The notes under the pieces were generated by a model. That model did not search any database, was not told the origin of the DNA, and saw nothing but the letters and a program-made list of their open reading frames with translations. A stretch of 63,995 nt of DNA, counting the filler, from Hausera hauseri (taxonomy: Eukaryota): assembly GCA_046269625.1 (NCBI GenBank). It is 12 parts of 12 records of this genome, joined end to end, with 100 filler letters (N's around TTAATTAATTAA, not from the genome) between each part and the next. Parts side by side here need not be neighbours in the genome. Positions count along the whole stretch, not along the records: positions 26,071 to 32,965 come from JBJURY010053774.1; 11 more parts are not named here. One strand, given 5' to 3'. This document shows, in pieces, positions 5,149 to 39,876 of the stretch (positions within the stretch are counted from its first letter, which is position 1; every line of letters begins with the position of its first letter). The translations under genes and the position numbers were made by a program.

Positions 5149-5248
5149 NNNNNNNNNNNNNNNNNNNNNNNNNNNNNNNNNNNNNNNNNNNNTTAATTAA
5201 TTAANNNNNNNNNNNNNNNNNNNNNNNNNNNNNNNNNNNNNNNNNNNN
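5149..5248. other. Artificial contig-joining spacer (first of 11)
   Basis: N44-TTAATTAATTAA-N44, giving stops in all six frames. Same spacer at 11526-11625, 15895-15994, 21687-21786, 25971-26070, 32966-33065, 39877-39976, 44217-44316, 49867-49966, 54376-54475 and 59943-60042. Confidence 0.98.
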
Positions 5249-5326
5249 ATTTTAATTATTTTTGTGTTTGAAATACATTTACCTACTTGCTTTGAGTGTT
5301 TCTTTATTTTTATATGAGCTGCCTAT

Positions 5327-6190: not shown

Positions 6191-6198
6191 AATTCGTA

Positions 6199-7675: not shown

Positions 7676-7944
7676 GTGGTTCTCACATTAACCCACCCAA
7701 AAGGAAGAAAAATTATTATTATGAAAAAAAAGTTGTTTAAATATTACGTTGTTGTTTTGCCAATAAAGTCAAAATTTTGTTCGCGTTCTTGTGACATTAT
7801 GTTATCTGATTTCGACTCGAATTTTCTTAATGTGTGAGTCTTTTGTAAAAGCTTTTGTGAAAACTTTTTTAATAGAAATTATTAGGATTTTTATGACTAA
7901 TTCCTCCAACCAAAATTTGGATATTTTGAATCTCCTTGTAAAAC

Positions 7945-10900: not shown

Positions 10901-11421
10901 CACAATCACTTAAAGTCTCAACAAATGAATCTCAAACTCAACCAAAATCGTTAGATTCAAGTCTTTGGTCAGACAGTGGTTACTCATCGGGTCACGACAG
11001 CAGTACGGTTCATAAAGATCCAGTCAATATCAATGGTATTAATCAGTCGAAAATTCCCGATATATCCAAATTACCAACGAGCCCGGCATCAAATGCAGCA
11101 GCCGCGCTAATCGAAAAGACAGCCGCTGCTGCGGAGATGGCGGCGTTATCAGCTAGTGCAGCATTGTTGAATTCCGATCTTTACAATTATCATCAAAATA
11201 TGGGAAGTAATCGAAATTCAAGTTACAGTTCTTATCAAGGTTCAGGATCAGAATTAGCTAATGAATTGACCACAATGAGTAACATTGCCTCCAGTATGTA
11301 TAAAAATGGACTTGAAGATCATATCAGATCTCTCACGGCCTTGGGATCTAAATATATGGAAGGCAATGGATATCAAGGTTTATTTTGTACATCTGTAACA
11401 ATTTTTAAAATATTGATATAG
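7945..11421 (+). CDS. Intronless C2H2 zinc-finger protein (8 fingers), ZFP91/ZNF692-like
   Basis: 1158-aa ORF with acidic N-terminus, His tract and 8 C2H2 fingers (~8795-9492). The last finger HTGEKPFKCELCEYSCRQKASLNYH resembles the ZFP91-family CRQKASLNWH. AT-hook-like GRPPK. An extra 3' exon cannot be excluded. Confidence 0.9.
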   Translation: MIEVKENFNQNNSDICLSNDYDNEPSDDLKDVDVSDDVADKALYLIGDDKSKSLTPHSSKGDRTNEGNNDGYEYDSDETDETESESEFSTEDDEESSDENDIDPSNSSIMEERWKQLEKYGVSDDGPLYHAMATPINLSANSSSAPPGDYPLMADDPYLMGLGGGNALNMSMRHLSQIQTKQSTKCSLDNEYHMLPCGQKMQQTCRLPPANMHFDYAKHSRHSIGPPQSFGDLRSQFHLNMMMNAQAAASNGPTGELPNHDEWHGPIGHLHHPHHHHHHHQDFRCTYCNKCYTNQSSLRSHLKKHMNIEEKKFKCDKCSYSSQYQKNLLKHIHINHAEINADDQCRCDVCDRFFASEFLLKDHLKMHTSDNTYECEKCGKKLKTKLKLRYHADVHNPEKPYICDIDGCDRAFRTPKYLKNHKDEFHKLQPKKHFCPVESCKLVFQRKSHLKRHMAIHDTEKNYHCHWPDCNRSFRTQETLNVHLIRHTGEKPFKCELCEYSCRQKASLNYHCRNAHAKDCDKLLSMISAHPMEPKSVGTRPVGRPPKNRSDNFIRKSTAKFELSHDENDSRLESKIESDVNGIINNLNKDPTIIDIFKKPAPVDEDDLLRKEIFLIADDVLNNSPRDYGDVDEFTLEELCAIELSIKSKRGRKRKVLKELDALLAQSLNELNNDYIGDDDDNDDGEDDSNSYKEDEIESQSPIVIKKPQYTPSLMHSAPNDHTNTNCISTTANNIRSLSTFTDINEDDIPQEILGNPPNESVIDSSQCTSLNFNAHMKSVKTRLNSFASLTVTPSNHGVSSFDANYILNNNHSCVSEEQSVSQSNSPTSGHVKVESDVIDNIDETNDNIDSRSSSVQLSAQPANLTCHKRNIRSPHTTTTNEFVTIDSADRKDIADFDLKSLDDNPIQGFHNLPKQLENPLSALNSLENLKMNKDLLDQVLEDLKIMQNDEDQRQKTFLSPSSAATINNTFRNISELNSVRPSCVPQSLKVSTNESQTQPKSLDSSLWSDSGYSSGHDSSTVHKDPVNINGINQSKIPDISKLPTSPASNAAAALIEKTAAAAEMAALSASAALLNSDLYNYHQNMGSNRNSSYSSYQGSGSELANELTTMSNIASSMYKNGLEDHIRSLTALGSKYMEGNGYQGLFCTSVTIFKILI

Positions 11422-12339
11422 TCTGTTACATAATTTATTTCTAACTCTAAGCAATGGTGTTATAAGAATTACATTTTTCCAAAAATTGCACGAACAAGGA
11501 AATGAAATTTACGGCTAGTTCAGGGNNNNNNNNNNNNNNNNNNNNNNNNNNNNNNNNNNNNNNNNNNNNTTAATTAATTAANNNNNNNNNNNNNNNNNNN
11601 NNNNNNNNNNNNNNNNNNNNNNNNNAATGTTTGTAATGCATTTCGACTATTCTATATAGTATAATTTTTGATTTTTGACATTTTCTCGGTATTCAAGAAT
11701 AATGCAAATTTTATTAATAAGCTTTGGATGAACCAAGGAAATTCAATAAATAAAAATATATATATATGCGTTACAATCATTTACAATGAACACTAATTTA
11801 CTTCTAAATTGTGTATAGCAAGGTACTTTTGTATGTTGAATTTAAATATGTAAATTATTCTCGCTCTTATTCAGAAATTTCTGAGTTCTGGATAACAAAA
11901 TAATTGTGTTATCGGTACTTCTTGCACAAGTAATTCCCAAATTTGAAACCAATAAATACACAAGAGTGCGATATTTTTATTAGAAAAACATTTAAAAAAT
12001 GATATACAGATATTAATTATACATAATTATAATTGTATATATACCTGGATTTACAAGTTCCACGATCTGTGAGCTACGCAATGTCATAATGATGAAGTAT
12101 AAGAAAAATGTTCGCTATCACGCGAACTGAACAGTATTTCCAATACAAGATATGCACGATGGCAATGAAGAAATACGTTTACAAACATTTCTACACGTGT
12201 CATATTGCAATATTTTGATGCGTATCTAGATTGGATTCTACCTCATCTTGGACAGGTGGTGGAGCACGTTTTATTCCTTGTTCAATTGCCATTTTGTGCA
12301 GAACGTTTGCAACTTCGTGTTTAAGTTTTTTTTGCAATA

Positions 12340-21595: not shown

Positions 21596-21894
21596 CCAAG
21601 AGCAGTTTTCCGTAGTGACTGAGCTCAGTGGAGCTAAATGTGAATTAAGTATAATAGTAATAGTAGTAATAAATTACTTCATAGTANNNNNNNNNNNNNN
21701 NNNNNNNNNNNNNNNNNNNNNNNNNNNNNNTTAATTAATTAANNNNNNNNNNNNNNNNNNNNNNNNNNNNNNNNNNNNNNNNNNNNCGCCGTTGTCGAAT
21801 TAACCAATCAGCATGCGAGACGCCTGTGATTGGTCAATTGGTGCGTGGGTGGACCTCCCCCCCTCCCCCCTTGTTCCAGAACACTCTTTTTTCC

Positions 21895-24116
21895 CATACT
21901 ACCGTCAATTGTTTTATCGACTCTAATTCCATTTTCATCAATCCATCTCTAGCAGCTCGGTGGAAAGCCTCAACGGAGTTCGAAAAATTCTTTAAGCAAA
22001 TTATTGGAACATTAGTTAGCACATTGGAGTGAAGGACACTGGCAATAAGTTTGCTCAACGCTTCGGAACCGTACTTATTATCGAAATTAAATTGACTCAA
22101 ATCTCGTGTGTCAGCAGTTCTTCTGTCACCATGCGTCAGTGCGCCAAGGGATTCTAAACGTTTCGCAACGGTTGCAGCAAATCGCCGTTCTCCTGCGAGA
22201 TCAGTGATAAGAAGAACGTAATGCGGGGGAATTACTTGATTGGATCTATGAGTTCTACCGAATTGCTGAATTGCTTTTTCCGCTGACCACGGCAATTCGA
22301 TAGTTATATGGACTCGTTGGTCTTTGTTCATGAATTTCTCATCTGAATGTAAAGAAATACCGGTACTTGCAGCATCGGATATTATTGCAATACACTTTTG
22401 CTTGTTATTAAATTGATTTTTCTCTTCGATATTAACATCGGCAAGAGATCGTAATACATACTTTACCGAACCCAATCCATAATCCACCAACCGACCTTTA
22501 CGACCAGTTAATTCTGATACTACATTCGGTCCACCGAGTTGACTAATCAGGTCATCAAGGCAATTAACTGGAAGCATATTTCCCAAACATTCAATTTGAT
22601 TCAATAAATTAATTTTCTAACTATCGATGTCAGAATTTCGAATGATCATGTTGTTCATCTGTATATTACAATTAGATAAATTTTGGTATTCTGGTATTGT
22701 TAAAATAGATTTATTTGCTGCGGGATAATGTTTTAGAATTAAATCTCTAAGAATCTCTTTGGCAGTGGAAACAAATCCACTTAGACCATTAGCGTTTTCT
22801 TCATCTTCAGCCATTAGTGCATTTAGTTTTGCTTCACCCGTCGATTGCAACCCGATAACAACCGATTTGTCGTTTCCAATAGACCTATTTGCTAATTCAA
22901 CGCATTTGGAAACTTTTGCCGCAATGCAAAGATGCCTAAAAAAATCCTGATGAGCTCTCCAATATGTCGACTGGAAACTTTTTGCATCATTTAAATTCAA
23001 CTTGTTCTTTCTTTGGGCTTCTGAAAACACATTGTAAATTTTATTCCACAATTCAACGCAACATTTACAGATGTCCTTGAATCGATATCCGTTAATTTGA
23101 ACATCGTCTGTTGCCACTTCAATTATTTCAAAATTCACATCAGTATAATCCAATTGGCGAGCTAAATAAAGACCCTCGGATTTCATTTCTAATGTTAACA
23201 GTTCCATCGCACCAACTCCATGATCTGAGAGAAACTTTTCGAACTCATCAAAATCTGAAAATGCCGTATTGTATCCCCAAAGACCTAAACGAATCATGTA
23301 CTTTAAATGCTTTGGTTCCGATGCACCAGTTGCACTAGCATAAACAACTCTCGCTTGGGGTAGATGTTCCTGCAACGACTGAACGATTCGCGCTGTTTTT
23401 GTTGGATTTATCGTAGAGTTTTTTGCTTTATGGCATTCGTCAAAAACGATTAAGCCGTCGAAATTTTCTCCACACCACGCAAGAATTTGATTCAATCTGC
23501 TATTAAATTCATTATATGCTGGATTGCGTTTTTCACTTATTAATGTTGAATACGTGACGAACAATACGCCATTTTCTTGCTGTATTGTTTCATATCGTTC
23601 CGGCACAGAAAATACGTCGACAATCAGACCGACGTCTTTCAAATCTCGCTCTGCGTCTTTCATCAAACAATTACTAATGGAAACCCAAATGGCCTTCTTC
23701 CTTTCAGAAATAAGATTTTCAAATATTATTCCTGAAATTGTTCGACCTTTACCCACACCGGCACCGTCGCCTATGAAAAATCCTTTTCGACTACAATTCG
23801 GCAGAAATGTTTCGTGAATTTGACATGCGTATACTACGGCTTCTAACTGAACGTTGGATAGGCGACCATCAGAAATGATCCTCTCTGGCATCAGCAGTTG
23901 GTAATGTATATCTGGTGCTTGTTTAATTGATAATGACTTTGACTCGACAACTTTATAGGGGTGAGGTCGGCCAAGAGTAAATTTTGATGGAACGTACTCT
24001 TGAAATGCGTCGTTTAATTCTGTTTTGGTCAAATCAGCATCTGATTCAAATATCCATTGCCAGTCTTGTTTCTGGAGAACCTTTCTTTCCTGCTGTTGTT
24101 TATTTTCATTTGACAA
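21895..24116 (-). pseudogene. SBNO: Strawberry notch homologue, intronless, with nonsense stop and 3' truncation
   Basis: [70 protein letters not shown]. Both ORFs are in the same frame, split by one TAG (22617-22619). Homology ends near 21900. Confidence 0.93.
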
Positions 24117-25004
24117 AAAGCCTTGATGATTTATAATTTGATGATAATTCGCATTGTATTGGTTAGCAGTCTTGAAGTTTGGATAATTATTTTAAATATT
24201 TGATTATTTGAATTAGAAATTAGGAATATGGTTACAGTTTGGGGTGGCCCTTACCTTCTCCCACTATAACAATATTATCATCAATTTAGAGTTTGCTACT
24301 GGAGCAGATTAGGATTACTCAATCTCGAGTAATCGGTTTGTGCCTTATTAATTTTAAAAGAATTTAATTGTCTTGCTGGTACTGTATGCGATAATGAATG
24401 CCTCAATTTACTAATTCTTGTCTTAACTATATGAGTTTACTCTTGATTTTAACCTTAGGGTAGTACAAATCAGCCTTAAGGGCCGATGGAAAACTATATA
24501 AGGATTTTAGAACAAATTAAATAAATAACCTTTATTGATACACCAACTAACAATCAGTTGCAATCAGATACGCTTGTATAATGTCAGTAAGTAATTCAGA
24601 TGAATATCGTCAAAATCAATTTGGTAATTTGCTGGGTTGTTCGACTCTAAGTCGTACACTGAACTGTTTCTCAATACTGTATTAATTCGATCTCGTTTCA
24701 CTGTGAAACTAATCGTGAGAGTTCGTTCACTGTTAATTTAGTTCGAATAGATTGATGCGATACTAAGTCGCAAGAGTTGTTCGGTTATTCTGTTTCCATA
24801 CTGTATATATACTATTGGACTGGACTAATTATGTACAATTCTAATCAATTCCTTTATTTCTCATCGGTGAATACTAGATAATAATCAAATCTACTTTTTA
24901 ATTTATACAACTGTTCCTTCACATGGTAATTTTATTTAGTCAGATTAATATACAATTGTTTATTCTCATTCACAGTTATACTCGACTCTCGACTGCTGAC
25001 TATT

Positions 25005-25298
25005 TCACAAGTATATACACATCTGCCATCTGAACTCTTTGAAGGAGTTTTCCACATCCTTTTGAGAAACAAATATTTTTTTTGAATAAAATTGTCCAAA
25101 GCCTGGAAAAAAGCAAAAATCGGTTGGTGTAAGATCTGGTGAATATGTTGGGTGAAAAAGAATTTCTAAGTCTAACTCTTTTAGTTTTAGTAGCATTTTT
25201 TGTTCAATATGTGGCCGAGTGTTGCCTTGCAAAAGTATTGGCCGATCTCTATTGACTAACCTCGGTTGCTTAATTGCAAGCTATTTCATCATGTCATC
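25005..25298 (-). mobile_element. mariner transposase remnant
   Basis: PILLQGNTRPH...LFHPTYSPDLTPTDFCFF. Confidence 0.85.
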
Positions 25299-25494
25299 AG
25301 TAGGTAGATGTGAGTCCACTGCACCATACCCCCTCCCCGGGGAAGGAAATTTTTTTTTGCTTCGCGGATGAGTCATGGGGTAGAAAAAATTACACACACA
25401 TACACGCTTAATAGGGCGGAGATAGAGGACACACAGTCAGAAAGTAAATACACACAGGCAGTCGTATTGTATGGTTTTTTGGTAAGTGTAAAAA

Positions 25495-25655
25495 TTTGAA
25501 TTTGGCGCGAAAATTTTGTTTTAATTGTGAGTGAAGAAAGGGATTTCTAGTGCCAACTGGGTTTCACTATTCCCACCCCCCCCAATTAGTGTAATCTGAT
25601 TGGTCGGTTCTTTTGAAAAAATTTTTGTTTTATTTTTGGCGGTCGGGTATAAATA
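25495..25655 (+). promoter_or_regulatory. Candidate promoter with CHR+E2F, CCAAT and TATA
   Basis: TTTGAA-TTTGGCGCGAAA (25495-25512), CTGATTGG (~25596), TTTGGCGG (~25635), TATAAATA (25648-25655), about 30 nt before ATG 25684. Confidence 0.5.
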
Positions 25656-25683
25656 TAGGCCTTAAAAATCAGTTGAATGTAAA

Positions 25684-25970
25684 ATGTTTCAGACAATTAA
25701 CTCAAAAACATTGTCTAATTTCAAAATGCGAATGAATGCTGTTTCAGTATTGATACATTTGAAAGAAGAAGAAATTTACTGTGCATTGAATACAGTGCAA
25801 AAATTGTTTACTACAACAGTTGATTTAGCATATGTTGCACCAGAGATATTGTTGGAAGTGATACAAAACAGATTGATTAATGTCAGTCCAATAATCGGTA
25901 AAATAATCAGAATGATGGAAGAATTGCAAAACAATCAGAAAGAACTGAACAATGCAATTAATGACTTTAC
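25684..25970 (+). CDS. Unknown protein, 3' truncated by contig end
   Basis: ATG-started open frame behind the promoter motifs, with a coiled-coil-like end. Confidence 0.45.
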
Positions 25971-26070: not shown

Positions 26071-27210
26071 TCCTCTGTCCTCCCCTCTGTTGGGAGCTGC
26101 TGGTGACCAATCAGGACGGATGGGCTCCGTCATGGTGGCCGCAGTGCACATGGCCGGGCGGGGAGATGGAGAGGGTGCGGCAGAAGATGCAGGTGAAGCT
26201 GGGTGTGGTGGAGAGAGGTGAGAGGCCTCGTCCAGTTCATCCTCTGTCTCCACAGCCTGGTCCCGTTGTTCTGGAGGGGAGGAGGGGTGAGCAAGAGGGG
26301 CAGGAGCCGAGTCGGAGGAGGACGCAGACGATGAAGAGGACGATGGTGAAGCTGTCTTCTTCTCCCTCGTCACCAGGTACGTCTGTGCGTCCTCTGCGGT
26401 CCCCAGATCAAATCTCCTGCCCAGATTGCGCTTAGCCCACTTGATGGCAACCTCCAGAGGAGCTTGGAGGTCACCACCAAAGCCAAGCAGCACCCGCTTC
26501 TCAGCTGCACGCACCTCTGCATAATGGTCCCTCAGAATGGTGATGGTGGTGAAGCCCCAGTTCTTAGCGTTGCCCTCAATTAAACTGAGGGTTTTGTTGC
26601 TAGGGTGGGCAGGCTTGATGGTGGTGGCCAAATCAGAGGTGATCCGCTGTATGGCTGGCGGGTAGCGGTCACCTCTCGACACATTTTTAAGGTGGTGTGT
26701 CGCTTTAAGCAGCCTGTACATGGCCCTGACCTTTTCAGTGAAGTCCGGGTCATCAGACTGCTGGTGGTTGTCGTGGCTGGATCCCGCGTTCCGCCTCCAG
26801 GGACCGTTCCTCGGCTGCCACTGTTGTTGCCGCCTTTGTCCACCCCTCTGCTGCTGCCGCTGCTGCCGCGGCTGCTGTCGCTGTCCACCTCTGTGTGGTG
26901 CTGAATTCCCGTTCCTCCAGCTGCGGGAGCGGGGGCGGGGGCGAGGCTGTCGGTAGGACCGAGATCGGTCCTGCGGTGGACCGAAGCTCCTGCTGCGGCC
27001 AGATGGGCGGCCGCGGGTCACGGAGGCATAAGTCGGTCTCCGGTGCTGCGGTGGAGGACCCCAGTAGCTTGGTGCGCCCCTGTGCGTGTAGTGGTCTCGG
27101 TACGCTGGCTGCCAGGGGCGCTGGCTCTCGGGCTGCCGGGTCCGTTGTCTGCCTCCGCGGCGCCGAACCGTGGTCCAGTCCTCCCAGTCTTGGTCTCGGT
27201 CCCACGCCAT
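26071..27210 (-). CDS. ORF1 of the downstream tandem copy (partial)
   Basis: Close paralogue of the N-terminal half of ORF 32771-30612, open until the contig end. Confidence 0.9.
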
Positions 27211-27393
27211 TAAGATCCAAGATCCAGGAAAAACTATTAAAACTATCTAATAACTAAAAACTGACTGTAAAACAATCTGCTGTATTATTAAAAAATAATA
27301 AAATAATAAAAAAATAATAAAAAAGAGAATATGAAAACCGAACTGTTTTTAAATGCCGTCAGGCACTTTAATGACGAACATGAGAACAGCAAA

Positions 27394-27437
27394 CAAAAGC
27401 AACGTTTCGGTTCTAGTCAACCTTCCTCAGGCCTTTG
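27394..27437 (-). ncRNA. Minimal type I hammerhead ribozyme
   Basis: Minus strand CAAAGGC-CTGAGGA-A-GGTT(GACTAG)AACC-GAA-ACGT-T^GCTTTTG. Stem I CAAAGGC/GCTTTTG, core CUGANGA...GAAA, 4-bp stem II, palindromic ACGT stem III, as typical of Penelope pLTRs. Confidence 0.88.
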
Positions 27438-27464
27438 CCGTCTCAACTAAACAGATCGGTTGAA

Positions 27465-27580
27465 AAGTGACTATATACAGCAGAGAAAATTCAAATTTCG
27501 AACTCAAACATCCTTTAAACAGTCAGCGGGCTCTGATTGGCCCATCAGGAACAGGTGTGAGCGTCATAAACAGGAAGTAG
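27465..27580 (-). promoter_or_regulatory. Putative pLTR promoter
   Basis: TATATA at ~27472-27477, about 35 nt upstream of the hammerhead; CCAATCAGAG at 27531-27540; ETS-like CAGGAAGT at 27571. Confidence 0.5.
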
Positions 27581-28392
27581 GGAGGAGCGAAGAAGAAGAA
27601 CAGAGGTTGCGCTGCCTCCCCCTTCTGTCAGAACTGAAAATTACAATTTAAATCAAAATAATCCGGTAAATGTATTTACAGAAATAGAAACATAACTGTA
27701 CAGGCAAATTGTAATATACAATATATACAGTATTCACCAAAATACATTATTTACAGATATTTACAATATACATGGCTTTGAATGGCCTTTATAATGGTAT
27801 CAAAATATATATTATATACACTTTATTTACAAAAATAGCTTTAGTGATGCACAGTGTCTAGTTTTCTAATTAATTTATTATTATCATTACTAATTAGGGG
27901 AAAATTAGGTTAGGGTTAGGCAAGAAATCCTGTGAGGTTAGGGTAAGTGCAACATATCAGGGCAAGGACATACAATGGGATATTTAAAACAAACCACAAG
28001 CTGGGAGTAAGAAATTAGGATTAGGCAATAATAACAAAATATCCGGGTCAAAGAGCAATGTTGGCTGAACCACAGGTGGAGGACAGAGGCCTCTAGAAGG
28101 AGAATCAAGATGTGATGGTAAGTAATTTTGAATATTTATTAACTCAGTGTTTTTCTTTCTTTTGACAGGAGCTGGAATCCCTCCCAGGTCATCAGAGAAG
28201 ACAGGCCGCACGGGACAAACCACGGCACGAGGCACTGGCCAGTTAGGATCAGAGTTTGGGTAGGAGAAGGGTGAGGTTCAAGGTGAGGGATCAGAGGTCC
28301 AAGAAATTGAACCCCATTCTCCCCTCCTCTTACCTTCTTCCCCCCTCCAGGTTTGCACGGGCACATCATGCCAGGAGCATCCCATGCGGAGC

Positions 28393-30834
28393 CTATCTCA
28401 CATTCAGACCTCTGGGAATGAATGTGTCCAGCTTCTGGATCCACAATCCTTCAGCCCTTCTCCTCTGGGCTGAAGACCATGCTGGGTTGCATTCCAGCAC
28501 CAGTGCTGAAACAGAATCCCAGCCATGGCATGTAAAGTGCTTCACTAGGGGCAGATGTGTTTTCTTTTGTTTTAGAATGTTGTGTCTATGTTGGGCGAAA
28601 CGGGTGAGGATGCTGTTACCCGTCTCGCCCACATAATTGACTTTACAGATCCGGCAAGTAATTAAATAAACACAATTTTTTGATTTGGGGTTTCCTGATT
28701 GATCTAATTTGAAAATTGTGTTATTAAATTTGTTCTGCACCCAGTGAAGCTGCTTAAAGAACCCACTCTGACCTTTGACCTTTGGTGTTTTTAAAGGTCT
28801 CACCTCAGCTCGGACGAGGAAATCCCTCAGGTTTTTATTTCTTTTGTAGGCCGCAATTATTTTATGGTTTGGAAGCAAAGCAGTGTCGGATTGGAATTTA
28901 GTAAAATTGTTTTTGATATTATATACAAATTTTCCGGCTGAGGAGGAGAATGTAGTTATCAGAGGGAGTAAGGGAGATACATCGAGGGGTCTGGACTCAA
29001 GGAAGTTCTTCCTGCATGCTCTCAGGAATGATCTGGAATATCCTCTCTTACCAAGAGCAGAAAACAGAGTGCTAGTTGCTTCCTCAAAATCTGTTTTCTG
29101 TGTGCAAATCCTATGAAATCTGAGGAGCTGTGATTTAATTAGGCCGGCATATGTATGCCTGGGATGATAGCTAGTTTTAAATAGAAGAGCATGTGTGTCT
29201 GTGGGTTTAAAATATACTTTAATATCCAATTTATGTGTTGTGTCAAAATTTACTCCTTTATAAGTGTGAGTGTCCAGGAAGTCGACCGCTTTAACGCTGG
29301 TGCTGGACTTCACTGTAATCGATGGGTTATGTGTGTTCAAGTGCTGGAGGAATTCCTGGAATTCAGCTTCAGAATGGGTCCAGACCCCCCAGATGTCATC
29401 CAGATACCGGAAGTAGTGCAGAGGTTTTTTCCGGCACGTACTCAGGGCACCTTCTTCCCAGTTTGCCATAAAAATATTTGCATAGGCCGGTGCGAACTTT
29501 TTGCCCATTGCTGTGCCTTTAATCTGAAGAAAAAACTCCTCGTTGAAAACAAAGTCGTTTCTCCTCAGATTAATCTCCAACAGCTGGATGAGTTCTCGAT
29601 CTGGCCTCCTCGAATCTGGATATTTCAAAAAGATGTTTTTAATACAGCCAATTCCTTCATCTATATCAATATTTGTATACAAACTGTCTATGTCAATTGT
29701 GAATAAAATAGAGTCCTGGGGTAGACAAATTGATTTGATCTTATCCACAAAATCATATGTGTCTTTAATATAGCTTTTATGCAGGATAGATAAAGGATAT
29801 AAATAGTGATCAATAAACTCTGCTGTGTGGTAAGTTTCACTCCCACAGTCTGACACAATCGGTCGGCCGGGGGGAATTTCAAATTTCTTTGACCAGGCGC
29901 TGGGCTCCTTGTGGATTTTGGGGAGGAGATAGAACCTCCTGGCCCTGGGTTCAGAGGAGCCGCGCAGGTAAGATTTCTGTTTTGCATTAATGAATTTCTT
30001 TTTATGTAGATCGTTTAGAATTTTGTTTACTAGAGGGATTGTGTCTAAATAAATGGGAGTGTCCAATTTTTTATAATATGTTTCATTATGTAACTGTTTA
30101 TATCCCTCCCACAGGTACTGCTCCCTGTCCAAGATGACAATGGAGCTGCCCTTGTCAGCAGGTTTGATCACTATATTATTATTATTAATTAGTTCTTTTA
30201 AGGCTTTAGTTTCTGCTATTGTTAGATTCGGTATGGTTTTAATAAGTTTGAAATCATTATCAAAATATTTTAGATCCTTAGAAATCAATTTGTCCACCTC
30301 AGAAGGGAGAGAGGTGATTGGAGGAGCCCAGTCGGATTCTGGCATAAAAGGTAAGTTGTTATTGTTGTTGCCAACCTCATCTTTATAATAAATAGCCAGT
30401 TTGATCCTTCTGTGGTATTTTTGTAAATCAAACCTCATCTGCATCTTGATTTCCTTAGGTTTATTACCGCCCTCAGAGGGGATGAAAGTGAGGCCCCTGT
30501 TTAAAAGGGAGCACTGTGCATCACTAAGAATAAATGTTTTGGAAAGATTACATACATTATTATTTACAATATGAGCATGCCCCTCCTGTCCAGGCAGGCT
30601 TCCGGGGGCCGCTAGTTTAACCACTGGCTCCAATGGCTGAACATGCGAGCCGCAGTAGCCTTGGACCAGTGAACGTTGTCCCCATTCACTGTGAAGGCCC
30701 GCCTCTCCAGTGCTGGGATGAAGCGGCTCAGCTGTGAGATGTTTATGTTCATGTGCGTGAGGGTCACCTGTTGTTCCTGGGGTAATGCCGGTGAGAAATT
30801 CACCGCAGGGACAAAAATCTCTGCATTCGGGCAT
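28393..30834 (-). CDS. Penelope-like reverse transcriptase with GIY-YIG endonuclease (intact)
   Basis: VCNLS..LS....LLNRGLTFIP, KPADKG, LPKIHK, GRPIVS, DIDSLYTNI, GTAMG..FAP.YAN, RYLDD, and endonuclease CVYLITC..C...YVGET...RF.QH...HF...E..WI..L.T..P.GLN. Conserved homology starts near 30560. Confidence 0.96.
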   Translation of the reverse strand: MPECRDFCPCGEFLTGITPGTTGDPHAHEHKHLTAEPLHPSTGEAGLHSEWGQRSLVQGYCGSHVQPLEPVVKLAAPGSLPGQEGHAHIVNNNVCNLSKTFILSDAQCSLLNRGLTFIPSEGGNKPKEIKMQMRFDLQKYHRRIKLAIYYKDEVGNNNNNLPFMPESDWAPPITSLPSEVDKLISKDLKYFDNDFKLIKTIPNLTIAETKALKELINNNNIVIKPADKGSSIVILDREQYLWEGYKQLHNETYYKKLDTPIYLDTIPLVNKILNDLHKKKFINAKQKSYLRGSSEPRARRFYLLPKIHKEPSAWSKKFEIPPGRPIVSDCGSETYHTAEFIDHYLYPLSILHKSYIKDTYDFVDKIKSICLPQDSILFTIDIDSLYTNIDIDEGIGCIKNIFLKYPDSRRPDRELIQLLEINLRRNDFVFNEEFFLQIKGTAMGKKFAPAYANIFMANWEEGALSTCRKKPLHYFRYLDDIWGVWTHSEAEFQEFLQHLNTHNPSITVKSSTSVKAVDFLDTHTYKGVNFDTTHKLDIKVYFKPTDTHALLFKTSYHPRHTYAGLIKSQLLRFHRICTQKTDFEEATSTLFSALGKRGYSRSFLRACRKNFLESRPLDVSPLLPLITTFSSSAGKFVYNIKNNFTKFQSDTALLPNHKIIAAYKRNKNLRDFLVRAEVRPLKTPKVKGQSGFFKQLHWVQNKFNNTIFKLDQSGNPKSKNCVYLITCRICKVNYVGETGNSILTRFAQHRHNILKQKKTHLPLVKHFTCHGWDSVSALVLECNPAWSSAQRRRAEGLWIQKLDTFIPRGLNVR
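30579..30621 (-). promoter_or_regulatory. Candidate -1 programmed ribosomal frameshift signal (ORF1 to RT)
   Basis: G_TTA_AAC directly before the ORF1 TAG, a 5-nt spacer, then GCCCC-cggaag-CCTG-cctgga-CAGG-a-GGGGC stem-loop. The RT ORF is in the -1 frame. Confidence 0.7.
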
Positions 30835-32771
30835 TTTACCCCAGCTGCCCTCAGCGCCGCTCTCATCTCTGTGACCACAGACTTTTTGTCCCTCTGGGTC
30901 CTGTGGTTGATGCCCACAGAGATGATCAGCCTCTCAACGTGCTCCATCACTGGCGCCTTGCTGAAGAGGCTGGTGATGTGCCTCCACTTTGCGCCAGGGA
31001 AGCTGTCCACCTGCAGATCTGGGTTAGTCCAGTCAGGCAACTTTGCCACATTAGAGTCCCCCAGAATAATAAATTTTTTATTTAAGTTGAGGGACCAGTG
31101 GCGTGTTTTGTTATGGAATCCCACCTGTCTGGCTGCAACAGTTACCTTACTTGCAGGTGGAAGCGTGGAGGAGACCGGGGTTGGAGCAGATGACCTTGCT
31201 CCAGCTTTGAAGGTCAGACGTCGTTGTGTGCTGACAGCCAATCTGCGCTGGAGGGGAGCCAACCTAGGTCTCAGCAAGTACCTCGTCTCAGCCTGTGTGG
31301 AGTCAGAGGTCTGGGCTTGTGGAGGAGGTGCTGCAGCTGGAGCCCGGTATTTGTTGATTTCCTCCTGGAGGAGTTCAGAGATGATGCTGATTTCCTCATC
31401 CGTGGCAGAAGCTGCTGCCACAGTAGGCTGGAGAGAAGGAGGAGACATCGGGGGAGGAGGAGAAGAGGTCCTCGACGCTGCCGGGCTGGAGCTGTCTATC
31501 TCCACCAGAGAGCTCGATGGTCTCCTCTGGCGTCGAGGGAGGGGGGCTGCCACCTCAGGACTTGTTGGAGGAGGAGCAGGGGGGGTCATTGTTCCTCTGT
31601 CCTCCCCTCTGTTGGGAGCTGCTGGTGACCAATCAGGACGGATGGGCTCCGTCATGGTGGCCGCAGTGCTCATGACAGGGCGGGGAGATGGAGAGGGTGC
31701 GGCAGAAGATGCAGGTGAAGCTGGGTGTGGTGGAGAGAGGTGAGAGGACTCGTCCAGTTCATCCTCTGTCTCCACAGCCTGGTCCCGTTGTTCTGGAGGG
31801 GAGGAGGGGTGAGCAAGGGGGGCAGGAGCCAAGTCGGAGGAGGACGCAGACGATGAAGAGGACGATGGTGAAGCTGTCTTCTTCTCCCTCGTCACCAGGT
31901 ATGTCTGTGCATCCTCCGCGGTCCCCATGTCGAACCTCCTGCCCAGATTACGCTTAGCCCACTTGATGGCAACCTCCAGTGGAGCTTGGAGGTCACCACC
32001 AAGACCTAACAGCACCCGCTTCTCGGCTGCACGCACCTCAGCATAATGGTCCTGCAGAATGGTGATAGTGGTGAAGGCCCAGTTCTTAGCGTTACCCTCA
32101 ATTAAGTTGAGGGTTTTATTGCTAGGGTGGGCAGGCTTGATGGTGGTGGCTAAGTTGTCGGTGATCCGCTGTATGGCTGGCGGATATCGATCACCTCTCG
32201 ACACGTTCTTAAGGTGGTGTGTCGCTTTTAGCAGTCTGTACATGGCCCTGACCTTTTCAGTGAAGTCCGGGTCATCAGACTGTTGGTGGTCGTGGCGGCT
32301 GGATCCATCATTCCGGTCCCAGGGACCAGTCCGCTGTTGCCACCGCTGCTGCCGTTGTTGTTGTTGTTGCCGCGGCCGCCACTGCTGGCGCTGCGCCTGC
32401 TGCTGTCGTTGCTGGCGCTGCCGCGGCTGCTGCTGCTGCCGTCGCTGTCCACCTCCGCGTGGTGCTGAACTATAGTTCCAGCTTCGAGAGCGGGGGCGGG
32501 GGCGAGGCTGTCGGTAGGAACGAGATCGGTTCTGCGGTGGACCGAAGCTCCTGCTGCGGTCAGATGGGCGGCCGCGGGTCACGGAGGCATAAGTCGGTCT
32601 CCGGTGCTGCGGTGGAGGGCCCCAGTACCTTGGTGCGCCCCTGTGCGGGTAGCGGTCCCGGTCCGCTGGATGCCAGGGGCGTCGGCTCTCTGGCTGCCGG
32701 GTCCGTTGTCTGCCTCCGCGACGCCGAACAGTGGTCCAGTCCTCCCAGTCTCGGTCTCTATCCCACGCCAT
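30612..32771 (-). CDS. ORF1: R/Q-rich N-terminus, helical domain, P/S linker, C-terminal SGNH/GDSL hydrolase
   Basis: 719 aa. All four SGNH blocks are present: ILGDSN (I), FPGA (II), VGINH (III), DNVHW (V). Confidence 0.9.
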   Translation of the reverse strand: MAWDRDRDWEDWTTVRRRGGRQRTRQPESRRPWHPADRDRYPHRGAPRYWGPPPQHRRPTYASVTRGRPSDRSRSFGPPQNRSRSYRQPRPRPRSRSWNYSSAPRGGGQRRQQQQPRQRQQRQQQAQRQQWRPRQQQQQRQQRWQQRTGPWDRNDGSSRHDHQQSDDPDFTEKVRAMYRLLKATHHLKNVSRGDRYPPAIQRITDNLATTIKPAHPSNKTLNLIEGNAKNWAFTTITILQDHYAEVRAAEKRVLLGLGGDLQAPLEVAIKWAKRNLGRRFDMGTAEDAQTYLVTREKKTASPSSSSSSASSSDLAPAPLAHPSSPPEQRDQAVETEDELDESSHLSPPHPASPASSAAPSPSPRPVMSTAATMTEPIRPDWSPAAPNRGEDRGTMTPPAPPPTSPEVAAPLPRRQRRPSSSLVEIDSSSPAASRTSSPPPPMSPPSLQPTVAAASATDEEISIISELLQEEINKYRAPAAAPPPQAQTSDSTQAETRYLLRPRLAPLQRRLAVSTQRRLTFKAGARSSAPTPVSSTLPPASKVTVAARQVGFHNKTRHWSLNLNKKFIILGDSNVAKLPDWTNPDLQVDSFPGAKWRHITSLFSKAPVMEHVERLIISVGINHRTQRDKKSVVTEMRAALRAAGVKCPNAEIFVPAVNFSPALPQEQQVTLTHMNINISQLSRFIPALERRAFTVNGDNVHWSKATAARMFSHWSQWLN

Positions 32772-33299
32772 TTGGATCCGAGATAAAGCTAATAAAGCTA
32801 ATAAAAATATCTATTAAATAAAAGCTGACTGTAAAAAACTCTGCTGTCTTAGTAATTAAAAAGTAAAAAATAATAATAAAAAATAATAAAAGAGAGGAAA
32901 ACCGAACTGTTTTTAAATGCCGTCAGGCACTTTAATGACGAACATGAGAACAGCAAACAAAAGCANNNNNNNNNNNNNNNNNNNNNNNNNNNNNNNNNNN
33001 NNNNNNNNNTTAATTAATTAANNNNNNNNNNNNNNNNNNNNNNNNNNNNNNNNNNNNNNNNNNNNCGCATATTACGACAATATAACAAAATAAGCTAAAT
33101 TGAGTGAGTGAATTAGTCCTAAAGCACGGTAGGTTAAGTTGAGAATTTAATGCACCATGTTTGTCGTAACATATTAAGAATTGCTCATTCGTTGGTTGAA
33201 ACGAATAATTGATTCAAATTATATCGAAAAATGTATGACATGGTGCATCAGTTCTCTTTTCTAGGATTGACTTGATTCATGATTGTATTGGATTTGCAG

Positions 33300-36200
33300 A
33301 AGTTTCGTTTGTGAATTGACGATATACTGTGCAAAATTGAAACGAAATATTACTGCTCGAGAAGCCGGTTCGAATAAGCAGTCGGCATCTAAAGCCTGTG
33401 CAACATCGCTTGTTCGACAGTTGTTCCATTTGGGAGTTATTGAAAAATCGGGAACGCAATTAAAGAAGCCTAAGTCCACGGAGGTATTATTTTAATGTTT
33501 AATTTAGAACGTAGCAGCTATCCGTAAGTCGGCACAATTAGTTAGTATTTTATTGTGAAACTGCTGCCAAATAAAAGTCAATGTCACCCGTAGGCTTATC
33601 ATAGATTATAAGTCTATGTAAGTTTGTTGAAACAGAATATTTAAAAATCGTTTGTTTGAAATGAGACGTCACATTTTATTCTAGATCCCTCCTTTCAAAG
33701 TTACTTTGAATGAGGAATTCCGACAGAATCTTCTTGATACTGTTTCACATCTCGGTCTTCCATTAGCTGAAAAGCCTGATCCATCAAATGCAGAAGAATC
33801 TAATTTGATAGTCAATTACACAATAGTCGATTTTGAGCCACAGAGCCACCATCGTCCGCAAGTCATCCCGTGGTCTCCACCGATGCAGAATTGGAATCCG
33901 TGGATTGCATGTAACATCGACGAAGGAGACGAAGTTTATAAGAATATACTTTTCATTAAATTTATCCGGTTTTCAGGCTTTTATGTCGTTGAGAGATATC
34001 AGTGATCGAATGCGACAGACATTCACACAGAAACTATCATCGGATGTTTCATTACAGAAAATGTTGAGCGAGAGAAAATTATTGCCGGCTGCAGTTAGTG
34101 AAAACGATGTTGTCCAAGCAGTAGTATCTAGTCAAATTGTTTTGATTCGCGGTGAAACGGGTAGTGGGAAAACGACACAAGTGCCACAATATATTCTCGA
34201 TTCTTTCATTCGGTCCAACAGAGGAGCTGAATGTAACATAATTGTCACTCAACCACGCAGAATCTCCGCGATAACACTGGCTGAAAGAGTTTCCAGCGAA
34301 CGTTGTGAGATACTTGGCGATTCTTGTGGTTATTCCGTCAGGTTCGATACCGTTTTACCACGCCCATATGGTGGAATTCTTTATTGTACTGTCGGATCTT
34401 TGTTACGGAAAATGGAAGGGGGTCTCAGAGGGGTTTCACACGTTATTATCGATGAAATCCACGAACGAGATTGCAATACGGATTTTCTAATGATCCTGTT
34501 GAAAGATATGGCAATGGCATATTCACAATTGAAAATTATTTTGATGAGTGCCACTATTGATGTCGAAATGTTCAAAAACTTCTTTCCTTCAGTTTACGTT
34601 CTTGAAATTGAAGGTCGAACACATCCTGTCAGCTGTAATTAATGTTTTGTAAAGGATCAGGTCAAGTGGTTTTCCATAGATTATTTCCTCGAGGATGCTA
34701 TTGAAATGTTGAATTATCAGCCCGATGATTCAGTGAAAAAGAAAAAATCGAAAAATGACGACGGAGATCAGGAAAGTACTGTTGGTGATGCTGATGAGCT
34801 CGATGTAGATTGCAATAAGATTTGTGATAATTCGTATAAGCCGGCGACTAGAATGGCGATGGCAAAGATGTCTGAACGGGAAATACCTCTTGATTTGATT
34901 GAATCGATATTAGGGTGAGTGAACAATGTCGTATTTTTGAATACTGTTCATTTAAGAGTAATGTTCATTTCTTATTACTGTCTCATTTTTCTAGCAAGTA
35001 ATGTTTATTATTGAAAAAAATTCAGGTATATTGACAAAATTGACCCAGACGGCGCTGTTTTGGTGTTTCTTCCTGGATGGAATATAATTCAAATGTTATG
35101 GAAACAGTTGTCAAAACATCCAGTCTATGGTACCCAGCGCTATTTAATCCTACCGTTGCATTCTCAAATCACTCGAGAAGATCAACGGAAAGTATTCTAT
35201 CCGCCCAGAAGCGGTGTACGGAAAATCATCCTGTCAACAAATATCGCCGAAAGTAGTATAACGATCAACGACGTCATGTTTGTCATTGATTCATGTCGCG
35301 CAAAAATCAAAACATTCACATCACGTAACAATCTGACGAGTTACAACACGGTTTGGGCATCGAAAACGAATTTAGAACAACGACGAGGTCGTGCCGGTCG
35401 AGTTCGGGAAGGGTATGCATTTCATCTGTGCAGCCGGAATCGATTTGATCGATTGGAGACTCATCAGATTCCGGAAATGCTTCGAACTCCTCTCCACGAG
35501 TTGTTACTGATGATTAAATTACTTCGACTGGGTGATTGTCAGACATTCTTATCGAAGGCCCTTCAGCAACCGCCGATAGATGCCATAATAGACGCCGAAT
35601 ATTTACTGAAGGAAATGAAGGCGTTCGACAAGAACGACGAATTGACGCCGTTGGGGAAAATTCTAGCTCGACTTCCCATTGAACCACGAATGGGTAAAAT
35701 GCTTATATTCAGTTGTGCATTCGGTGTGTCGTATGCCTGTTCGCTGATCGCAGCATGTACGTCATTCGGTGAACCATTCGTCATGCCGCCGGACAGGAAA
35801 CGGTTGAGTAGAGTTCAAGTGGATTTTGCGTGCAATCGTCATTCGGACCACGTTGCAATGTTGAACGCATTTCAGAAATGGAACGGCATCAAACACCGTG
35901 GAGAGGACGTCGAACATTCGTTCTGTGAAAACAAAGGTCTCAGTTTATCGGCACTGAAAACGTCCAGTGAGGCTGCGTCGCAAATTCGTTCGATTCTCGT
36001 CAATTCGGGATTTCCCGAGGATTGTATGTATTCACAGAATTACGATTTCTTCACGGACAATTCATCAATTGACGTCATTGTCACTCTGCTGGTTCTCGGT
36101 CTCTATCCGAATGTTTGTTATCACAAAGAAAAAAGGAAAGTTCTTACAACGGAAGGCAAACCGGCGCTTGTCCACAAATCGTCCGTCAACTGTAACAATT

Positions 36201-37111
36201 TCATCAACACTTTCCCATTGCCGTTTTTTATATTCGGAGAGAAAATTCGTACACGCGCAATTTCCTGTAAACAAATGTCGATGGTAAATCCGTTGCAGTT
36301 GTTGTTGCTCGGTGCCAGGAAGGTGACATTTGTCGAGGAGAAAATTGTCGTTGACGATTGGTTGACTCTCGATATGGATTTTGAGGCGGCTGTCCACATT
36401 TTGGCGTTAAAGCCGGCAATGGAAGGTTTGCTTGTCAAGGCGTGTTTGAATCCTGAAATGGTGATGAATCCTGATGAGAATGACCAAAAAATAATAAACA
36501 TCGTCACGCAGTTGAGTTCGGATGCGGCGTGTATTTACGAATCTGCGAATATCGACTCGACGAACTCATCGAAACGGAAATTTCCTTTTGCCGGTGAACG
36601 TCCGACGCTAGCGAGTGGGTTTGGTGGTCTTAATAAGTATCCCAGAACGAGTAGAGGGGATTTTAGAGGGTCTCGTGGTTATGGATATGGGCAGCAATTT
36701 CGGCAAAATAGTTACGACAATGCGCCAAGAGATTTTCCGTTGAGACCACCGGGATCTCAGAATAGACAACCATTTCGTACTCCAATGGGACGTCCTTCTC
36801 CATTAGGTCAGGGAATGTCGAATTACGGTCAAGGACCTTCACGTTTCCCTTATCCTGGAATGTTGGGTGTGGGTTCAGAGGCCCAGGATAATAGTTGGCG
36901 ACAATCTCAGGACAGTTACAATGATGGGAACGGGTATGGGGAACGAGATGCAGCGACATATGGAGGCTATAATAATCAAGAATATAAGAGAGAAGGGGAT
37001 TACAAGAATAATGATGAATATGGACAACAGCAGTATGTGGATTCATTTGCGAACAGACCGCGATATCCAATGCAACAAAATTCGTCGCAGAGCTACCGTA
37101 TGGACTCTTAA
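33300..37111 (+). CDS. DHX9: ATP-dependent RNA helicase A (DHX9/Maleless), spliced, 5' exons missing
   Basis: Exons ~33300-33483, 33685-33933, 33977-34634, 34680-34914, 35026-37111, joined in frame by GT-AG introns of 201, 43, 45 and 111 nt. dsRBD2 ([28 protein letters not shown]), [31 protein letters not shown]-rich tail. Confidence 0.95.
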
Positions 37112-39327
37112 ATTTCATTCAAATTTATCGTTTTGCAATTTTTAGGACCGACGGGTTTTACTCCGAGATTTCGATAAAATTGTAGATGGATTATTGTTCT
37201 CATTAGTTAGCGTTTTGTCTTTTCGTAAACTGTGGTAATAAACGTTTAACTTCTTTTTTCTGTACTTGTTGATAAAATAAATTGTTCATTGGATGGCATT
37301 TTGATAAATTGATTAAATATCCTACTTGATATGGTGATGTCGGATTAGTGTTCAAATTCCTCTTATAAATGTGATGTATTCATACAATTTTTGGTCATTC
37401 TTTTTGGTTGAATGTCGACGTGGTTTATGGTCAAGTGAGGTATAAAAGTCCATTAAAAATGTGAATTTGAAGTTTTGTGCATGAAATTAAAAACTTATTT
37501 CGTTGGCCACTAAATTATAATAAACTTTTATAACTTTGAATGACTTTCAATTTATTTGTTTATTTTGTAAAAGGGTAAGAGATTTGTGAGTAACGTAATT
37601 TGACAGTTGGGGTTATAGAGTACGTTGAAAGTTTTGTCCTAGTGGCATTATCTACTAAATTTCGATTTCTAATTTAGTACTTGAAAATTAAATAGTCCCT
37701 ACTGTCAGATTGCGTGTGTGGAATAAATAAGTAAAATTCTTGGTACTCAGGTTTTATCCTTGTGATACCATCTGAAGACGGGTTGTTAAGTCGATTCTTG
37801 ACGACTCACTAAAATCTCTGACCCCAAATAAATGTACAAATAATAGAAATATCTACCTAATTCGTGTTTCTAACTTGCATCGCCCTCCCGATACCAGTTG
37901 TATACAGATAAATCATTTCTCAATAACAAACTCGCGTTAGTTTTGAAATCGAACTCACTATAAGGCTAAGACTAGCCCGACCTTCAACTGTTAAAGCAAA
38001 TTGGAAACAATCACTAATTTAACAATATAGAAAACTTCAGTTCACAATAATAATTTCATTCTTCTGTCTAAGTACGATATGTAAAATTGGGTAGAAAAGT
38101 CGCATACATATCCATGTGACACAGGACGAAACTAGCCATTCAAAATGATCGCTTTTTCGACCTTTTTGTCGACAAATATAAAATTTTTACAAATAGAATT
38201 TGCAGAAAATGTAATTTGGTCAAAATTCTTAAGCCCAATTATGAAAAATTAAATTTTTTTATTAAAAAGACTTAAACACTAACGAAAAAAAACCCAAAGT
38301 AAAATAAGTTACCGATTTATAGAAAAAAACGTTATTAAACGTAATCAAGTGTTGCTACTGAACGCTAACTGCGAATCAGCTCTCTTTAAAGCACCTTCAA
38401 ACAACACAATGTTACCCTCAGGCAAACGTACTGATTGAGCGTTTCCATCAGACACACAAAACATATTTAAAAATATTTGCAGATACAGTGCTAACTGGTT
38501 AACAGTTTTTTCTTATGCTTTACTCGGTTGGCAAAAATACTATCGTAATTTTATACTACTAGAACAGAGGTGACTCCCAGTGAACAGACTATTAAAACAA
38601 CACAACAGCATTTCTTAAAATTAAGTGAAGAGTCACAACCATAAACCATTTCTTCCAGCGAACCTTTATACGGCGAAGTTCGTCTAGGTAAAAAACTGAA
38701 CGAAGTTCGTATCCGAGCTTTCTTATATAGGATCGCTTGAGTTGTTGGAGCTAACGTCACAACGCTAAAATTCTCTTGTTCACTTTTCTAACGTTAAACC
38801 AGCTTTCTTCGTTGACGATAATCCCAGCAATTATTCCGAACAGCCAACTGTCACCAACCCTACATTTGCAGACTTTGCCAACGGTTAACACCTCACACTA
38901 ATGTAAATCCTTAGAAATGATTTATAGTCCGTTGTTCTTCTTGACTCTTCCGATTCTGAAATTTCTGCACCTTTACCGCTTTGTCAAATTCATCCGGTTA
39001 TTTATCCTAGCTCTTCATCAATCAGACGAGTGACTTTTACTCTGCCCAATGAGACCGCCTCTTTCTCAGATGTTGCCGACCCTTTAAACTAAAATGCGTT
39101 AAAATGTCTGAAAAAGTATTTTCCGTAAATTTATCCTATAGGGAAGAGTTGTTGGCAGTTTGCGGCAGATTCATGGTTTTTTACTTTTACTGATATCGTT
39201 TCGTCGAGTTATTGTCGGTATTACTGGAATCGTTTTTTTCTAACAAATATTACAGTTTTTGAGATCTTTCCAAAATTGAATATTTTTTTATTTTGGCCAA
39301 CTATTACAGAAGTATTTTTATTCGAAT

Positions 39328-39876
39328 CAGGTTGTTGGTGTTGCTACTGAGAATCTCAACAAAATCATCGATATAAACCATTATCCGGTTGAAGAAGCGA
39401 AACGTTCGAATTTTCGACATAGACCAATTGGTATTGGTGTCCAAGGACTGGCCGATACGTTTGCCACGATGCGCTATCCATTTGACTCACCGGATGCGTG
39501 TGATTTGAATCGTCGAATATTTGAGACGATCTATTTCGGTGCGTTGAAGAAGTCGTGTGAATTAGCAAAACGTTATGGGAAATATGACACGTACGATGGT
39601 TCTCCTGTCATTGGAATGTAGTTTGAATGTCCAATGTAATAGGTCCATTGGGCTTGTCGAAATGTTGCAGGTTTACAATTATACTGCACGATATGTGTAT
39701 CAGGGTGGAAACAAACGACCGGGTGCATTTGCCATTTATTTGGAACCGTGGCATTCGGATATTTTCGATTTTCTACAGTTGCGGAAAAACCACGGCGATG
39801 AATCGAAGAAAGCTCGCGATTTGTTTCTGGCATTGTGGATTCCGGATTTGTTTATGAAACGTGTACAGAATAACGA
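39328..39876 (+). pseudogene. RRM1: Ribonucleotide reductase large subunit, two fragments in scrambled order
   Basis: 39328-39609: [35 protein letters not shown]...YDGSPV (mid/late region). 39645-39876: [23 protein letters not shown]...[18 protein letters not shown] (an earlier region). Confidence 0.9.

Follow-up and report, generated by a model that had tools for sequence, protein, structure and literature searches.

The DNA analysed here (the window, 63,995 nt, from the Hausera hauseri assembly GCA_046269625.1) consists of 12 short contigs separated by N spacers, and a Penelope-like element (PLE) is confined to one of them, the 6,895-nt contig at positions 26071-32965. Two open reading frames (ORFs) lie in tandem on its minus strand. 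ORF1 encodes 719 residues ending in a predicted SGNH esterase, and the frame that follows encodes a reverse transcriptase (RT) that has the GIY-YIG endonuclease (EN) at its C-terminus. An earlier, sequence-only reading had described an intact ORF1 ahead of an RT/GIY-YIG frame, and this holds, since positions 32771-30612 are free of stops and the frame with RVT_1 and GIY-YIG comes next. The -1 frameshift signal, the hammerhead motif, the tandem units and the telomere-like tracts treated below go beyond that reading. Judged from the sequence, the locus is an intact two-ORF, EN-bearing PLE, likely from a teleost, whose RT is likely made only as an ORF1-RT-EN fusion through programmed -1 frameshifting; we put the probability of this reading at about 0.8.

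The junction between ORF1 and the RT frame

At the junction of the window, and at 14/14 related intact junctions (the intact ones among the 18 RT-linked loci of the 22 fetched), the RT frame opens before ORF1 has ended and is offset to -1. All of them also carry, in frame with ORF1 and 0-18 nt ahead of its stop, N[G/T]TAAA[C/T], which in the window takes the form G_UUA_AAC. With one mismatch in XXX tolerated, the heptamer fits X_XXY_YYZ in the window and in all 14. The N[G/T]TAAA[C/T] pattern is found at 9 of 5,853 codon positions elsewhere in ORF1. The overlap measures 10 nt in L001, L002, L003 and L006, and the crossover is therefore confined to the heptamer. The frameshift signal is present again in L023 and L024, which were fetched by RT, and a 2,549-nt contig of another run crosses the junction without a gap, so that the junction is not an assembly error.

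Near-duplicates (L002, L010, L011 and L020) were left out of the junction statistics. At the slip site the Leu or Val codon is UUA or GUA in 11/11 distinct junctions, while in the rest of these ORFs UUA accounts for 15% of the Leu codons and GUA for 18% of the Val codons. Because these codons are fixed at the site though rare elsewhere, conservation of the protein alone is no explanation; the esterase ends in [LVI][NK] in 119/150 representatives. A stem-loop is predicted 3-8 nt downstream of the heptamer in 11/11 junctions (the customary spacer is 5-9 nt; PMC5009743), ranks within the top 7% of local windows by stability at 7/11, and the junction stems are overall more stable than the local background (nominal Fisher p ~2e-5, 11 junctions). 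The C-run/G-run polarity of the stem is reversed in L009, L012 and L017, and no pseudoknot common to the junctions was found by eye. At 10 of 15 junctions, translation after the slip would meet its first Met only beyond GLxFxP, a conserved motif at the N-terminus of the RT.

Both the heptamer and the arrangement have precedents. G_UU(A) is the site of equine arteritis virus, and U_UUA_AAC is among the most shift-prone heptamers (PMC5009743). According to a figure legend in PMC8557442 and in its preprint, ORF1 of PLEs can be separable from the RT by a frameshift with a pseudoknot. We regard the predicted frameshift cassette as well supported and as partly anticipated. The coordinates of all features are collected in Table 1.

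Table 1. Features of the PLE contig, in window coordinates.
Feature	Position	Strand	Basis or remark
ORF1 copy A, 719 aa, intact, no stops	30612..32771	-	ORF call, homologues
ORF1 residues 1-162, Arg/Gln-rich basic region	32286..32771	-	composition; aligns poorly
ORF1 residues 163-296, all-helical conserved domain	31884..32285	-	predicted model; in 150/150 representatives
ORF1 residues 297-555, variable Pro/Ser-rich linker	31107..31883	-	composition, alignment
ORF1 residues 556-719, SGNH hydrolase domain	30615..31106	-	model match and catalytic residues
Catalytic S573	31053-31055	-
Catalytic H701	30669-30671	-
Slippery heptamer G_UUA_AAC, in-frame, directly before ORF1 stop	30615..30621	-	predicted -1 site
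GC stem-loop, starting 5 nt after the heptamer	30579..30609	-	predicted, putative stimulator; z +0.8
RT and GIY-YIG frame read after the slip, 740 aa	28393..30615	-	Pfam RVT_1 and GIY-YIG above cut-off
DKG motif of the RT frame	30148-30159	-
YLDD motif of the RT	29395-29406	-
GIY/CxxC/YVG of the endonuclease	28627-28674	-
Inter-unit spacer (3' untranslated region of unit A and upstream region of unit B, pseudo-LTR equivalent)	27211..28392	-
Degenerate telomere-like tract, CCCTAA sense on coding strand	27905..27949	-
Minimal type-I hammerhead motif, palindrome replacing helix III	27395..27436	-	predicted to need dimer
5' part of next head-to-tail unit, ORF1 copy B	26071..27210	-	open to contig end

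ORF1 and its predicted esterase domain

Composition, predicted models and residues agree with the layout that had been proposed for ORF1 from the sequence: a basic N-terminus, a helical domain, a Pro/Ser linker and GDS/G/GxN/DxxH blocks. The N-terminal region (25% Arg, 17% Gln, net charge +29) is likely RNA-binding, to judge from its composition. The following domain is helical in the predicted model (pLDDT 87.5) and carries the near-invariant motifs HH, NA.NW, HY and W..A..WA, whose HH, HY and Trp suggest a binding or metal site. The linker contains 17% Pro and 17% Ser.

The C-terminal domain is a predicted SGNH esterase with a full catalytic set (GDS573, G593, GIN622 and D698xxH701), which bears out the claim of a catalytically complete esterase at the level of models. 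The predicted model matches PAF-AH with Z 17.2 and an rmsd of 2.6 over 165 aligned residues, and Foldseek gave E 5e-8 to SGNH hydrolases and E 4.4e-6 to the ZfL2-1 esterase (4c1b). The S, G, N, D and H are complete in 127 of the 145 representatives with all five columns filled (150 aligned), and the set is therefore not there by chance. Pfam gave no match for the ORF1 of the window, even at E 0.1; GDSL_2 appeared below cut-off in ORF1 homologues, though not in the window ORF1, and a PDB sequence search with the esterase gave no match.

Neither PDB nor BFVD offered a convincing fold match for the helical domain, and the ESM Atlas gave no usable one, results that show neither novelty nor absence. 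As regards a capsid (CA) fold, the best Z was 8.1, to unrelated helical proteins, with no viral match at E<0.001, and three scans of viral contigs gave no relative. The label 'Gag-like' given to ORF1 is apt as an analogy, but does not extend to the sequence, as ORF1 contains a single Cys and no CCHC zinc knuckle.

The RT frame and its placement

The window RT-EN carries the PLE hallmarks, the DKG motif (as ADKG) and the CCHH residues of the endonuclease (CRIC between GIY and YIG, RFAQH and KHF), and its GIY-YIG is intact, unlike in the endonuclease-less Athena and Coprina. Where canonical PLEs have a single ORF, there are two overlapping ones here. By eye, the RT motifs are closer to the Neptune than to the Poseidon rows in the supplement of PMC8557442. 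The CX2-5CxxC linker zinc finger is absent from all 114 scorable RT sequences (121 examined, window included), and by its sequence the element is for this reason classed as Neptune-like, not Neptune proper. The ATG at 30834, from which an '813-aa ORF2' would run, is probably not a real start, as the RT frame opens 10 nt before the ORF1 stop in four relatives.

Two more distant elements were seen. In L019 (770-3005) the upstream esterase-like frame opens with GAS, not GDS; this locus has a linker zinc finger of Neptune type, intact, as well as a perfect (CCCTAA)4 run close to its 3' end. L028 (318-3997) is a PLE with 28% RT identity, in whose overlapping upstream ORF no esterase could be detected; the overlap contains the string G_GGA_AAC, and the 3' end has repeats resembling CCCTAAA. 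The helical domain resembles the upstream ORF of L028 weakly (probability 5.5%, E 0.007; HMM E 0.8), which is a lead only.

Linkage of ORF1 and RT across the family

The first search gave 20 ORF1 homologues, and a profile search 819 clusters (50% identity) at E<1e-30. RT lies directly downstream of ORF1 in 18 of the 22 loci fetched by ORF1. The other four comprise L004, which ends inside ORF1, the short L014 and L015, and L013, from which the RT has been deleted. Conversely, among six loci fetched by RT the esterase stands upstream in all three close ones in which the junction is included; one of the remainder is too short, one matches the later part of the RT alone, and one is distant with a different upstream ORF. 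Across 11 loci, the identities of the esterase rise and fall with those of the RT (Mantel rho 0.82). The two-ORF, EN-bearing lineage proposed from the sequence is thus borne out, and the linkage of ORF1 to RT extends to other copies in both directions.

L013 is 96-97% identical to L012 and lacks the whole RT frame and the stem-loop from just after the ORF1 stop; it is a candidate non-autonomous, ORF1-only element. L009 and L011 have junction DNA in common, yet their RT N-termini are 79% identical, which suggests module exchange between families.

Origin of the contig

The element contig has a GC content of 49% and an observed/expected CpG ratio of 0.58, against 31-43% and 0.88-1.32 for the 11 other contigs. 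Named homologues of both ORF1 and RT are from teleosts without exception (for ORF1, Xiphophorus and Nothobranchius). The DHX9 of a neighbouring contig suggests a divergent invertebrate: it is 55-59% identical to its top named matches from any animal group, fish included, and is no more similar to that of fish than to that of molluscs or insects. We consider the element contig likely to be of teleost origin inside an invertebrate assembly. It consists of element sequence throughout, with no junction to host DNA, and contaminating fish DNA is therefore the simplest reading.

Further observations concern the other contigs and the read depth. DHX9 (33066-39876) is also 66% identical to one unnamed protein, and contigs at 21787-25970 and 5249-11525 carry Strawberry notch and a C2H2 zinc-finger gene. 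Other probable mobile elements in the window are a repeat of ~3.6 kb common to two contigs (50302-53942 and 60043-63696, 76-92% identity) and an integrase-core frame at 3908-4732. In run X1 the depth is ~2,600-8,400 over most of contig 26071-32965 and 400-1,200 over the 5' part of copy A, and a contig close to copy B is deep as well; the contig may join two subfamilies. Copies of the element occur in GTDB bacterial genome records (L023-L028), among them an 11-kb two-unit array in an Epulonipiscioides record, and are most likely host contamination. Epulonipiscioides is a symbiont of the fish gut.

Alternative explanations

Several points weigh against frameshift expression. The heptamer pattern was defined post hoc and the loci are related by descent, so that p-values overstate the case, and in the P site the re-pairing of G_GUA, C_UUA and A_UUA, which occur as variants, is imperfect. 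Stem-loop stability is unremarkable in 4 of the 11 junctions, including that of the window (z +0.8), and L025 has neither motif nor stem and shows A_AAU_UUC instead (by eye). Four of the 18 linked loci were too broken for their junctions to be scored, L013 has ORF1 without any RT, and a Met stands just before or inside the N-terminal RT motif in 5/15 junctions. These Met codons would also suit an RT made apart from ORF1, from a spliced message, by re-initiation or from a non-AUG start, with the overlap being incidental. PLEs can keep introns, the window and L001, L003, L006 and L008 have a CAG|GAG-like acceptor after the stop, and the window has its in-frame ATG upstream. However, CAGGAG forms the 3' arm of the stem and is missing in L009, L012, L016 and L017, and the upstream ATG cannot be a general feature, as in four loci the RT frame is closed by stops 10 nt ahead of the junction. 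Neither splicing nor re-initiation requires an invariant -1 overlap (14/14), a fixed heptamer or a fixed rare codon, and we consider separate synthesis of the RT quite improbable beside the frameshift.

That ORF1 is a captured or adjacent host esterase gene, loosely linked to the RT, is hardly credible. L013 does carry ORF1 alone, and two public gene models give ORF1 homologues cellular-like names; L013 is, however, a derivative of L012, being nearly identical to it with the RT deleted, and the reading is already refuted by the linkage in both directions, the co-varying identities and the repetition of ORF1 in each tandem unit. Of somewhat more weight, although still unlikely, is that the element truly resides in the invertebrate after horizontal transfer from fish. 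It is present in the assembly, and near-identical sequence occurs in sequencing runs of 14 differently coded organisms, which a transfer-prone element could yield. The missing host junction and the CpG depletion relative to all 11 neighbours argue against residence, as does the frequency with which the family contaminates, being found in metagenomes and bacterial genome records.

Tandem units and telomere-like tracts

The partial-tandem (pseudo-LTR, from long terminal repeat) structure of PLEs, with a hammerhead motif, is found in the window. ORF1 copy B starts 1.2 kb past the RT stop and is 89-92% identical to copy A; in the helical domain the copies differ by 23 synonymous and 7 non-synonymous codons among 134. 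The hammerhead motif lies between the RT stop and the next ORF1, and the same motif occurs in 7 related loci and, in two copies, in L024. An Rfam search gave no hammerhead match and no other relevant family; dimer-type hammerhead motifs have been described for fish PLEs (PMC4209133). L024 holds two units that are 99.8% identical with a period of 5,443, L003, L007, L009 and L012 have matching ends, as in collapsed arrays or circles, and run X1 covers the element thousands deep. On one Sarotherodon chromosome, four RT copies have alternate consecutive accession numbers and unrelated automatic names, consistent with a tandem array.

Telomere 9-mers (overlapping counts) occur 112 times on the coding strand and 0 times on the other, in 9 of 17 loci, with L002, L004, L010, L011, L014 and L020 left out of the count. 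They recur in 3 of the 6 RT-fetched loci, on the coding strand only, and there are none in the other 11 contigs of the window. The tract of the window lies ~470 nt from the hammerhead. The first ~40 nt of L024 are near-perfect (CCCTAA)n leading into the tract, after which come its two units. Separately, the ORF1 linker of L009, L010 and L011 is itself made of degenerate CCCTAA-like repeats on the coding strand.

As an addition to the frameshift reading, the lineage may be telomere-associated. A sense CCCUAA-like tract would anneal either to the G-rich end of the chromosome or at a nick in TTAGGG repeats, copying would be primed inside circular or multimeric RNA, head-to-tail arrays would be built, and telomerase would then cap them. 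The coding-strand-only 9-mers, the (CCCTAA)n junction of L024, the matching ends and the depth of run X1 speak for it, as does the polarity of the tract, which agrees with Athena and Coprina (PMC8557442). A possibly comparable case is that of sturgeon, where PLEs with GIY-YIG are flanked by the telomeric repeat region of a herpesvirus and by telomere-like repeats (PMC12031113). On the other side, L013 and L018 have 3' sequence yet no 9-mers, and the tracts, in contrast to those of Athena, are degenerate and separated from the hammerhead by hundreds of bases. CCTAACC-like motifs are, moreover, common in fish repeats. The one telomere-type junction, of 40 nt and at a contig end, is thin evidence, and we therefore hold the association as tentative, at odds somewhat below even. 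Slightly more doubtful is the wider proposition that teleosts, which have telomerase, carry a large, uncatalogued EN-bearing PLE lineage that forms head-to-tail arrays at chromosome ends, uses a CCCUAA-like tract to prime on the telomeric overhang, and makes its RT, a relative of telomerase, in the manner of Gag-Pol, by a frameshift that fuses it behind an esterase.

Proposed mechanism and significance

From these features we infer the following course of events. Most ribosomes would halt after the esterase and yield abundant ORF1 protein (ORF1p) with its basic region, helical domain, linker and SGNH esterase, while a minority, stalled by the stem-loop, would slip at G_UUA_AAC and produce an ORF1-RT-EN fusion of ~1,459 aa; the slip would thereby set the ratio of structural to enzymatic protein, as in Gag/Gag-Pol. 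ORF1p may coat the RNA by means of its Arg-rich end, and the esterase may bind or deacylate membrane lipids, as the analogy with ZfL2-1 suggests; the RNP formation and lipid engagement of the sequence-only reading are likewise extrapolations from ZfL2-1. Where transcription reads through tandem units, hammerheads acting in pairs would cleave the RNA to unit length. The fusion would then copy this RNA at a nick made by GIY-YIG, or at a free 3' end such as a chromosome end, and so restore head-to-tail arrays. Priming inside the tract on circular or multimeric RNA would leave arrays whose outer end lies in the tract, as in L024.

RT expression and target choice of PLEs are largely untested, and the true product of the RT frame can be predicted from the conserved slip site and stem. 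Gene callers give the products of the element wrong starts or wrong names (for example 'SRRM1-like' and 'proteoglycan 4-like'), and the family is large (the 819 clusters) and a frequent contaminant of microbial and invertebrate assemblies. Were the arrays telomeric, EN-bearing PLEs would no longer be merely dispersed, and vertebrate chromosome ends would host a telomerase-related retroelement. A chromosome-end lineage, if real, would be the vertebrate counterpart of HeT-A/TART and Athena, ORF1-only derivatives included.

Comparison with known systems

The architecture had been put forward as new on the basis of the sequence, but this is contradicted by the literature, an outcome that the sequence-only reading had itself named as its refutation. 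Section 12 and the supplement of Schneider et al. 2013 (PMC3905857) list an esterase ORF1 for the Penelope-like Neptune1_Ren of Repbase, Rodriguez et al. (2017, PMC5408684) mention that 'canonical Neptune-like PLEs from fish and mollusks' have esterases, and the upstream gag-like ORF of a Chlamys PLE (PMC8557442) means that two-ORF exceptions are in print. These Neptune-like PLEs (Neptune1_Ren; fish, mollusc) likewise have an upstream SGNH-esterase ORF followed by an RT with a C-terminal GIY-YIG; the present element differs in lacking the CX2-5CxxC linker finger. The portions of these accounts that were available make no mention of a frameshift signal, the helical domain, a telomere-like tract or arrays. 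While the esterase-ORF1 architecture is already known, the frameshift signal and the possible telomere link are less described. The literature search found no paper on the slip signal or on telomeric arrays in EN-bearing fish PLEs, with Repbase and Dfam not covered and absence from print not established; the available parts of PMC7599744, PMC6431247, PMC5718144, PMC13652916 and bioRxiv 2026.07.22.740005 are silent on this architecture.

ORF1p is built like that of ZfL2-1, CR1 and RTEX, with an N-terminus rich in Arg, a helical region, a linker and, at the C-terminus, an SGNH esterase whose catalytic residues are intact. It differs from them in being coupled to an RT of PLE class and not of a long interspersed element (LINE), and in a helical region that is a bundle of ~135 residues, not a short coiled coil. 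Esterase activity and liposome binding were measured for ZfL2-1 and shown for it only (PMC3905857). To retroviral and LTR-element Gag-Pol and to arterivirus ORF1a/1b the likeness lies in the predicted -1 slip at X_XXY_YYZ with a 3' structure and a minor fusion product; unlike in the Gag-Pol systems, there is no CCHC knuckle, protease, integrase or LTR, and no capsid fold was detected.

With Athena/Terminon and Coprina the family has in common a separable ORF1, reverse-complement telomere-like repeats, hammerheads, head-to-tail arrays and GDSL ORFs. The PLE clade with a frameshift and a pseudoknot between ORF1 and RT is reportedly Athena; the junctions described here share a stem-loop, not a pseudoknot. 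This family also keeps a fused, intact GIY-YIG and lives in fish, and its tract is degenerate and far from the hammerhead. HeT-A and TART of Drosophila are LINEs that form telomeric arrays in hosts without telomerase, and the present family resembles them in its head-to-tail arrays, its possible location at chromosome ends and its ORF1-only derivative (L013).

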